Shown here: in pieces, positions 3,106 through 8,427 of the stretch
How the letters are laid out: every line of letters starts with the position of its first letter
Position numbering within the stretch: position 1 is the stretch's first letter
Virus record (IMG/VR): IMGVR_UViG_3300029305_005547
Coordinates: 160,001-224,000 of that record
Source of the DNA: a virus
Lineage: Duplodnaviria; Caudoviricetes
Direction: 5' to 3' (one strand)
Length of the DNA: 64,000 nucleotides
Notes under the pieces: model-generated
What the model saw: only the letters and a program-made list of their open reading frames with translations
Told to the model about the DNA's origin: nothing
Database searches by the model: none
Translations under genes and position numbers: made by a program

Positions 3106-3660
3106 TTAAACCTTACGTCTTTCAACAAGGTATTTAGGGCAGCTGCTCTTAACGGTAAGAACTTTGTGAGCCTTCTTTGTAGTTTCAAAATTACCTAAAG
3201 AAGGACCGCCGGGTTTTCTCATTTCTGCAACCTTAGATTTCTCTTTAACATCTTTGAGTGCAATTGTAGCGTCGAAGTCTTCTTTCTTAGGGAAACTAAA
3301 TTTGTTTCCTTCAAGATAAAGCCAAAGAACTTCTGCAAAGAAATCATACATCCAGTCGAGATTTCCTACTGCAAAATCTGCAGATTCCACGATACCGGAT
3401 TCAGTACGATCAATTCCTGCTCTTTCAACAACACCTCTGAGCCACTTACGGAATTCCTTACCACATGCTACATCTTTGTAGCCCTGGAATTCACCCTTCT
3501 TAATGATAGCAACCTGAGAACTAAACTCAGGATCTGCCGCTGCTGCATTTATTAAACGATCAAAATTAGAACGGTTAAACTGGTTAAGCTTCTTTTCACC
3601 GTCTGCATTGATCTTAGCAGCAATGGATGACAATACTTCATTAATTGATTCTTTTGCCAT
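3106..3660 (-). CDS. Hypothetical basic protein, possibly HU-like DNA-binding
   Basis: GGAGG RBS before ATG 3660 (the frame is open further upstream). The C-terminus weakly resembles the HU beta-arm. Confidence 0.55.
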   Translation of the reverse strand: MAKESINEVLSSIAAKINADGEKKLNQFNRSNFDRLINAAAADPEFSSQVAIIKKGEFQGYKDVACGKEFRKWLRGVVERAGIDRTESGIVESADFAVGNLDWMYDFFAEVLWLYLEGNKFSFPKKEDFDATIALKDVKEKSKVAEMRKPGGPSLGNFETTKKAHKVLTVKSSCPKYLVERRKV

Positions 3661-4019
3661 TTTTGTTTCCTCCATTTTATTATTTTTATTGAAACGGCAT
3701 ATTGATGCCATTGCAACCTTAGTAGGTTCATGATTACCAAAGATACTTTCGAAAATATCCTCTTTAAATATATCAGGTAGTTCGTTTTCAACTTCTCTAG
3801 TAATCTTATTTCTATAATCTGTTATTGAAATTATATTTTCCATAATGATTATTAATGCCAAATTTGTTTAGTGTCTTTTTTGGCTCTCCTTTTCTTTAGG
3901 AGTATTTCCAACATTTCTGAAATATTGAAATCTTCGTACTTGTCGGTTACTTTCTTTTTCTTCTTTTTCTTACCACTCATAAGTAACACTCCTTTCTTAC
4001 ACGATTGTGAACTATAACT

Positions 4020-5826: not shown

Positions 5827-5842
5827 AAAAGAAGGAAGTAGG

Positions 5843-6109
5843 TTATTCTACTTCCTTCTGTTTCTTTTCATTTTTAAGTTCTTCAAGACGTTTTTCAGCA
5901 TCTCTTATATCAGCCTCCAATGTTCCAATGGATTTCTCCATCATTCTTCTTGCTGATACAATTTCATGCTTTCCCATTACTATGGCAAGACCTGTTCTAT
6001 TAGATAAATCAATGAATTCTTTCTTGTACTGAACCAATTTTTGTTTCATTCCATTAAGCTCCTGTTCAAGAAGCATAATTTCCGTTTCCATTATTATAAG
6101 TTCACTCAT
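5843..6109 (-). CDS. Small coiled-coil hypothetical protein
   Basis: GGGAGG RBS before ATG 6109 (MSELIIMETE...). Confidence 0.65.
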   Translation of the reverse strand: MSELIIMETEIMLLEQELNGMKQKLVQYKKEFIDLSNRTGLAIVMGKHEIVSARRMMEKSIGTLEADIRDAEKRLEELKNEKKQKEVE

Positions 6110-6124
6110 AGTGTAACCTCCCAT

Positions 6125-6503
6125 ATAAAAAATTTCGAGATTATCCGACGGAAGGTGTAGCCCTGTTATGGCTATCTTTATAAACCTCCCATCGGATTCT
6201 CCTTTTGTTTTCCCTTTGTTACCAAAGGGGTTTGGCTTGATTCTCCCTTCCACTATTACCATGGTTAGGGCGCGTGCCAGTTCGAATACTTTCGTACTCT
6301 ACTTTACTCAGTTCTCATTGAAAGTCTTTCTCTTCCAACTACCTTTTCAACAGCCTAGGGGTGACTTTTAACAAACTCTATGGTTTGCCTATCTTTCGAT
6401 ATTTCGGTTACACCCTCCACCCATTCCCGTAGGGAGTAGGGTGGATATTGACACGCTTATACATTCAGATGAACAAGAGAATCATTTATGTAGAACTGAG
6501 ACC
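6125..6503 (-). ncRNA. Putative large structured RNA of unknown class
   Basis: GC-enriched intergenic stretch with GNRA-capped hairpins on the minus strand. Long-range pairings 6492-6500/6307-6315 and 6449-6456/6272-6279, and a terminal stem 6184-6196/6144-6156. Confidence 0.65.
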
Positions 6504-7601: not shown

Positions 7602-8427
7602 ATGGGACGATTGAAAAAATATAATGGACGCCTTTATGATATAGGAACATCTAATGTGTCTTTTCTTCAGTTAGCTACTGACTTAAAGCAATTAGGTGTT
7701 AAGAACTACTATTTCATGCTTGAAGTATATGATCCTGTAGTTTTAACTATAGATCCTTATAAATGCGATGAAAATGGTGTTTGTACATTAACAAAAGATG
7801 AGATTGTACGAGTAGTTACTGAATGTAGAAGAAATCCATGGTATTATCTAAGAGAAGTATGTAGAATACCTGATCCTGGTAATCCTAAGGGAATTCCTTA
7901 TAAAGCAAATCGAGGAAATATAGCACAAGCATTTTTATTCTTACACGGAATAGATTCATGGCTTTGTTTACCTCGTCAGCAAGGTAAAACGCAATCTGCA
8001 CTTGCTATTCAGGCTTGGGGGTATTCATTTGGTACTACAAATACATCATTTATTTTTGTTAATAAACAACAACCCGACGCAAAGGAAAACTTAGCACGTA
8101 TTAAGACACAGATAGATTTATTACCTGAGTATTTGCGATTTGAATCATTCTTTGATGATGAAAATGGTAAAACTGTGAAAGCTATTAAAAACGCTACAGA
8201 AATGAGGCATCCTGTAACTAAGAACAGAATTTCTGTTCGTGCAGGTGCTGCTTCTAAAGCGAAAGCTATTTCACTTGCTCGAGGTTTATCTGCTGCTATT
8301 ATTCATTATGATGAGCCAGAGTTTACTGACTTTATAAAAGAAATTGTGGAAAACTCTGTATCAACTTATGAAACAGCTGCACGTGCTGCAGAAATGAATG
8401 GATCATTATACGGAAGAATCTTTACGT
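7602..8427 (+). CDS. terL: Terminase large subunit, exon 1
   Basis: NPWYYLRE, Walker A LPRQQGKT, ARG, Walker B IIHYDE. Ends GRIFT plus a T at the group I 5' splice site. Confidence 0.9.

Follow-up and report, generated by a model that had tools for sequence, protein, structure and literature searches.

A group I intron core that interrupts no gene is conserved in an operon spacer of a jumbo phage and its relatives

An intergenic RNA in the genome of a jumbo phage is, judged by homology and base pairing, the catalytic core of a group I intron, comprising P3 to P9 with a P7.1/P7.2 extension and conforming to the subgroup IA2 type. The core interrupts no gene, conserved splice sites are absent and the fold is kept in related phages, which together point to an RNA that has probably taken on a new job. 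The DNA analyzed here, called the window, is a stretch of 64,000 nucleotides (positions 160001-224000 of a 278,849-nt source record, a ~279-kb jumbo phage whose terminase is of the phiKZ/AR9-like jumbo-phage type). Within it, the group I-derived element belongs to a three-gene operon on the minus strand, where it occupies the 394-nt spacer separating genes of 145 aa (6941-6504) and 88 aa (6109-5843), both of unknown function. The operon is headed by a repeated phage promoter-like motif (7539-7529, minus strand; 20 copies in the genome), which we infer to be of the early class, and ends at a bidirectional terminator-like hairpin (5830-5859). As translated, the upstream gene has an acidic tail and keeps its own stop codon, and the downstream gene has its own Shine-Dalgarno site (6121-6117); the element begins past the complete stop codon and finishes before the complete Shine-Dalgarno site. 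Both flanking genes are complete and also stand as separate genes in alleles without the core, and the element contains no endonuclease gene. GC content in the element region is 40-43%, compared to 32% for the genome, and the upstream gene is equally GC-rich.

The minus strand of 6125-6503 folds strongly (-120.1 kcal/mol, z -6.18 against shuffles), as the first-pass annotation of this DNA had proposed, and the plus strand less well (z -4.07 against shuffles). The three GNRA hairpins and the two helices named in that annotation exist in the sequence where they had been placed. Its broader description, a large non-coding or ribozyme-like element in the style of the ROOL and GOLLD RNAs, holds in that the RNA is large, non-coding, folded and ribozyme-like; the likeness to ROOL and GOLLD gives way to group I homology. 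With ROOL, GOLLD and raiA the element has in common that it is a large, multi-stem, phage-associated non-coding RNA of unknown function, whereas group I homology explains its fold and ancestry, and a search of the element against Rfam, at the gathering threshold and at E up to 10, found nothing, these three families included. ARAGORN found no tRNA or tmRNA in the window or the genome. Translation of the region as an N-terminal extension of the downstream gene is ruled out: the 139-aa long reading (ORF 5843-6262) is open in the window only; in each of the six homologues tested it is interrupted by a stop codon or a shift of frame.

To place the element, a covariance model was built from the aligned 3' halves of 14 canonical introns of this phage and others, with the element itself left out, and the window was searched with filters off. 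The element was matched at 6368-6209 over the full model with 77.7 bits (E 6e-19), compared to 16 bits for the best background match, the canonical set having been gathered with R and S patterns, which accounts for part of its conservation at those strands. Scores were 168 and 142 bits for the two terminase introns and 64-90 bits for the homologues of the element. A BLAST search of phage genomes gave a sole match, to a phage H101 group I intron in its P7.1/P7.2 region, and a weak self-match of the element fell in an intron of its own genome. Mapping by hand recovered a full core (P3, P4-P5, P6, P7, P7.1, P7.2, P8 and GNRA-capped P9), with helices P3, P4, P6, P7, P8 and P9 in canonical order and the P3/P7 pseudoknot in place. 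The earlier statement that group I P, Q, R and S elements are absent was therefore wrong; all four are present, though diverged.

The conserved element, as bounded by the model match and by homologues in the related phage sequences L028-L032, L084-L088, L200 and L202, spans ~245 nt (6456-6212, minus strand like all parts below). It opens with the 5' strand of P3 (6456-6449) followed by J3/4 (6448-6446); the P3 3' strand (6279-6272) pairs with it in all full-length homologues, so that the 8-bp pseudoknot seen in the first reading is conserved and corresponds to P3 of the group I core. The next segment (6445-6416) contains P4 (6445-6439/6422-6416), P5 (6435-6432/6428-6425) and between them J4/5, a 3x2 loop (6438-6436/6424-6423) that is not A-rich, with two-sided changes at four of the seven P4 pairs and three of the four P5 pairs. 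The P6 region (6415-6359) consists of an invariant 5-bp P6 (6415-6411/6363-6359) and variable P6a and P6b hairpins, in place of which L200 has a single short hairpin. J6/7, one nucleotide long if P6 has 5 bp, and the 5' strand of P7 (R) share 6358-6351, in which G6355 is the equivalent of G264 and the bulged base 6356 that of position 263. Between P7 and P3 lies the P7.1/P7.2 extension typical of IA2 (6350-6280; base stem 6344-6343/6311-6310, P7.1 6338-6318, P7.2 6299-6284), which matches the H101 intron and this phage's own introns and carries compensatory changes. P8 (6270-6245) has the loop typical of canonical relatives, shows covariation and contains 13 consecutive bases identical to P8 of the canonical intron L092 of relative G001. 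A shortened and altered J8/7 (6244-6238), with a 3-nt deletion relative to the canonical model, leads into the 3' strand of P7 (6237-6233), in which C6234 is the equivalent of C311, the two together filling 6244-6233. The G-binding pair G264-C311, with 263 bulged, is accordingly found as G6355-C6234 in the window family and in L200, and C311 is also kept in L202. P9 (6229-6212) is capped by a GNRA loop in all lineages (GUAA, GCAA, GCGA) and has a two-sided change. A GUAA L9 loop is expected to dock at a CC:GG step, and by our reading of the sequences such a step occurs in the window and in L200 at equal distance from the start of P4.

Two further hairpins flank the core. A 13-bp, P1-like hairpin round the upstream stop codon (6521-6490) occurs in close relatives only and is invariant save for a bulge across 7 sequences; L200 has a different 7-bp stem there. 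The long hairpin before the next ribosome-binding site (6195-6145), reported before as a terminal stem, is real and lineage-variable, with unrelated hairpins taking its place in L200, L202 and core-less alleles. It probably lies outside the ribozyme, because it is unrelated in L200 and L202 and because a hairpin and U-rich linker precede the gene in the empty alleles as well.

The element can be shown by this homology to descend from the IA2-type introns that also split the terminase and RNA polymerase genes of this phage, a type to which we take the T4 td, nrdB and sunY and the Twort introns to belong. The genome contains five canonical introns and a sixth, divergent core, namely the element, and the genes split include RNA polymerase-like genes whose identity was read from translations. 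The terminase large subunit gene (window 7602-11629) is interrupted by two group I introns; in the second, L1 contains an HNH ORF. The first (~8428-9105) has a GC-rich, ORF-less insertion in its P6 region (window 8600-8830); in the close relative L085 the spacing between called genes is 143 nt compared to ~700, which suggests that this insertion is apparently absent there. Three more canonical IA2-type introns lie in RNA polymerase-like genes at G000 228712-229917 (L082) and 155095-156000 (L002/L083), and an Rfam search of the genome listed one of these three, under its cut-off. Pseudoalteromonas phage H101 (L001 780-3290; KR534323 8015-10525) has five group I introns in close succession within ~2.5 kb, of which only the last has an HNH gene and none is annotated as an RNA feature in the record.

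Comparison of homologues shows that helices P3-P9 are kept by purifying selection. In a MAFFT alignment of 7 close sequences, 99.8% of cells in 81 pairs were paired, with six two-sided changes, whereas slid controls reached 33-44%; only 2/500 shuffles attained this result, in a test that relatedness inflates. Upon adding L200 and L202 by hand, 20 of 54 core pairs were changed on both sides and none was broken, a count that leans towards the model since the 54 pairs were hand-picked by the author; the two-sided pairs include members of P4, P5, P7, P7.1, P7.2, P8 and P9. Core columns of close relatives differ from the window by 3-8%, compared to 30-39% at fourfold-degenerate sites; for L200 the difference from the window is 14% in ungapped core segments, compared to 46% at silent sites.

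The two long-range helices proposed in the first-pass annotation fared differently from its pseudoknot in this comparison. The 9-bp closing helix (6500-6492/6315-6307) has an invariant 5' strand and two different pair-breaking changes in its 3' strand (L085/L088 and L031/L032), so that it is broken without compensation in two separate lineages, and its 5' strand is missing from a third, L200; the L031 change forms one side of a compensatory replacement of A-U by G-C in the base stem of P7.1. Strands 6483-6475 and 6247-6239 pair perfectly in the window only; close relatives are one pair short, and in L084 the pairing is largely gone.

Homologues were found by way of the flanking proteins. The element lies downstream of the same gene in the close relatives L028-L032 and L084-L088 and in L200 (neighbour 83% identical, downstream gene different), and L202 (neighbour 75% identical) has the 3' half of the element upstream of the downstream-gene homologue, its 5' half missing. 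Carriers thus have neighbouring proteins 75-100% identical, and more distant relatives are without the element: L201 (74%), L033-L035 and L006-L009 (67%) have both genes and a short spacer with no core, and L010 has two upstream-gene paralogues and no core. In a tree of the neighbour protein, two empty alleles were joined (99/99) and the carriers were not resolved as one clade; a single gain of the element is likely. Some five independent lineages were found. Scans of viral contigs, metagenomes and genomes with narrow patterns brought no new member, their matches being canonical introns or chance, and given this narrowness the element may be more widely distributed. The other genomes surveyed contained no look-alike sequence, and among the inspected matches in whole records of 18 related phages there were only canonical introns.

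Group I splicing relies on P1 with its guide, a wobble receptor in J4/5, a J8/7 that holds P1 and binds metals, and a terminal G (PMC3984707, PMC2219692), J8/7 and J4/5 being the strands with roles in substrate docking and metal binding (PMC2219692). With respect to P1, docking strands and host gene, the element, as compared across its homologues, fails as a splicing intron: it interrupts no gene that splicing would restore, and a search for P1 and its guide at every position gave candidates in single lineages and none common to the window family and L200. Five P1 candidates were rejected because none is common to the lineages: the stop-codon hairpin with U-G or with C-G at the splice site, a guide just before P3, the pairing 6489-6484/6185-6180 and a permuted 3' hairpin. 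The best candidate is the 13-bp hairpin whose loop starts at the stop codon, invariant in close relatives; in L200, only 17 nt separate the stop codon from P3 and this hairpin is absent. A plausible terminal G (6122) and P9.0 are present in L031/L084, neither is in L200/L202, and no P10 was found. J4/5 is a pyrimidine-containing 3x2 loop, compared to the purine-rich strand of canonical relatives, so that an A-rich receptor is lacking. J8/7 is 1-4 nt shorter than full length depending on register, and counted with position 307 it has 7 (window), 6 (L200) or ~5 nt (L202), compared to 8-9 in canonical relatives. J6/7 is one base long if the perfect, invariant 5-bp P6 forms, and position 263 is A, G or U across homologues, with three different bases also at position 305. 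G264-C311, U262-A312, C260 and the P3/P7 pseudoknot are invariant, and the non-canonical core bases are largely common to the window and L200. Pair 265-310 is G-C in the window, U-A in L200 and A-U in most canonical introns; since intron-like elements at L046 7440-7579 and L050 ~3640-3790 also have G-C at this P7 pair, the swap alone is not unique to the element.

Set beside the phage IA2 introns (the five in this genome, L092 and L105 of G001, and those of H101), the element has the same P3-P9 order and pairing, P7.1/P7.2, P8 loop, GNRA-capped P9 and G264-C311. Unlike them, it interrupts no gene, has no conserved P1 or guide, P10 or P9.0 and no endonuclease ORF, has its R and S strands, J4/5, J6/7 and J8/7 rewritten, and goes unmatched by Rfam RF00028. 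As a rule, group I introns persist since they must splice out of an essential gene. On the evidence above, this element cannot be retained for splicing; its active-site periphery is rewritten, it is still selected, and close splicing relatives reside in the same genome. As neither protein needs splicing and no endonuclease is there to spread the element, selection must therefore act on the fold or on a new activity.

The explanation we favour, at slightly less than an even chance, is that a group I ribozyme core has been domesticated as a non-splicing element acting in cis on the early mRNA, probably through its fold rather than as a catalyst. The element would be transcribed inside the polycistronic early mRNA and adopt the compact group I architecture, with the P3/P7 pseudoknot, an L9-P5 contact and the P7.1/P7.2 brace. 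The fold would then serve mainly as a nuclease-resistant block in cis, giving each of the two flanking cistrons a stability and processing of its own, and a stable fragment might persist. The strands for substrate docking and metal binding underwent a burst of change, after which the fold as a whole was conserved, a pattern that we read as domestication of the fold. Against a fold-only reading stand the invariant G264-C311, U262-A312, C260 and P3/P7, which are as a G-binding or catalytic role predicts; moreover, in GIR1 a shortened J8/7 and an altered J5/4 can accompany new chemistry, not loss of it (PMC2219692).

This precedent underlies the first alternative, which we consider unlikely: an active GIR1-like ribozyme whose P7 pocket would bind a downstream G, with hydrolysis or branching cutting before the next ribosome-binding site to give the mRNA a new 5' end. 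GIR1, the lariat-capping ribozyme of Didymium and Naegleria, likewise has a core of group I ancestry that lies upstream of a coding sequence and lacks a 5' exon, with a shortened J8/7 equivalent and an altered P4/P5 junction; there, the branching reaction accompanied the disappearance of the 5' exon and the shortening of J8/7 (PMC2219692). Retention of G264-C311 while pair 265-310 covaries, together with the shortened J8/7 and non-standard J4/5 (as in GIR1; PMC2219692), is consistent with such a ribozyme, as is the observation that, beyond the 3' hairpin, the first G in the six close homologues and L200 is preceded by a U and lies at the border of the Shine-Dalgarno site (in the window an additional G, 6136, lies upstream). 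Any AU-rich linker, however, would be expected to have its first G at the Shine-Dalgarno site; P9 and the next start codon lie 68 to 106 nt apart, P9.0 lacks conservation and no UG occurs there in L202. In the window, 6483-6475 could pair in the manner of P15 with J8/7 and the 3' strand of P8 (-11.7 kcal/mol; 6/300 shuffles as good), but in L031, L084 and L200 this pairing does not exceed the shuffle level, so that no conserved P15 emerges. The element also differs from GIR1 in being IA2-derived rather than IC3-like and free-standing in a phage operon rather than inside a splicing intron; conserved P15, P10 and the three-base lariat junction were not found.

A related reading, also unlikely and ranked behind the last, is that a phage ribozyme arose from an IA2 intron independently of GIR1, through loss of P1 and shortening of J8/7, and performs a new reaction such as G-directed cleavage, branching, modification of the mRNA end or action in trans. 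If this is true, the lariat-capping ribozyme would have a counterpart in a prokaryotic virus.

We judge it improbable that the element is an intron still splicing at the stop codon, with a 5' splice site after C6507 in the stop-codon hairpin and 6122 as terminal G, so that in L031/L084 the joined product would regenerate the stop codon fused to the Shine-Dalgarno site. The 13-bp P1-like hairpin, with its loop starting at the stop codon, is invariant even at silent sites (0-1/21 changes), an RNA polymerase intron of this phage has, read by eye, a C-G at its 5' splice site as well, L031/L084 could form a 2-bp P9.0, and such introns often have an in-frame stop behind the 5' exon (PMC3984707). Set against these, the hairpin is absent in L200, P10 is lacking, the loop would have only 2 nt with a U-G splice pair, and the docking strands have changed; furthermore, in L031/L084 splicing would leave both proteins as they are, and therefore cannot by itself account for the selection.

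To the same degree improbable is a riboswitch-like element that would sense a guanine nucleotide through the retained P7 pocket and control the downstream gene. The retained G-binding pair and the position directly upstream of a gene fit this role, and the c-di-GMP-controlled group I ribozyme in a 5' UTR of Clostridioides difficile, which also lies outside coding sequence and beside a ribosome-binding site, offers a precedent (PMC3984707). That ribozyme has an aptamer and working splice sites, whereas our element has no Rfam aptamer match and no conserved splice sites. Nor does it have a conserved expression platform, as the predicted accessibility of the Shine-Dalgarno site varies between lineages, from 0.21 to 0.73; no U-tract directly follows the 3' hairpin, and the downstream gene differs in L200.

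More doubtful again is a circularly permuted or trans-acting ribozyme, whose P1 would lie on a separate RNA or else behind the core, where the 3' hairpin has a U6191-G6149 wobble. The wobble is kept between the window and L031/L084 while its neighbour goes from A-U to G-C, but these are two independent versions only, L200 and L202 have unrelated, fully paired hairpins there, no G past P9 lies at a conserved distance, and no P1 or terminal G is conserved. Lastly, a neutral, decaying intron relic is very improbable and largely refuted by sequence comparison: the many departures from canonical R and S, the lack of a homing endonuclease and the absence from other relatives would suit it, yet compensatory changes occur, the core diverges several-fold slower than silent sites, and the non-canonical core bases recur in the window and L200.

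With the domesticated fold preferred and a new reaction as its chief competitor, the element is a compact natural test of how a ribozyme becomes repurposed or gives up catalysis while the fold stays, and its 245-nt RNA with two natural variants (window and L200) can be directly assayed in vitro. The result also shows that there are diverged group I cores among the Rfam-negative, ornate phage RNAs, where a lineage-specific model can uncover them. Literature searches, with most subscription papers outside their coverage, gave no report of such an element.

The surrounding locus shows some further variation. In the more distant relative L010 (2200-3970), one of the two paralogues of the 145-aa gene is lengthened to 338 aa. 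A short motif past the stop codon is common to all alleles and is not enriched in intergenic DNA genome-wide. In core-less relatives (L033 1216-1402; L008 12875-13060), a 10-11-nt motif occurs three times in the same spacer, at an exact spacing of 39 nt and with hairpins between the copies, and part of this motif remains just past the stop codon in the window (6505-6497); the array could be a small repeat RNA or a set of tandem binding sites. Finally, a 10-nt stretch in the 3' hairpin (window 6190-6180) equals the ribosome-binding region of the upstream gene (6951-6942) and has four copies in the genome, possibly as the relic of a duplicated start region.
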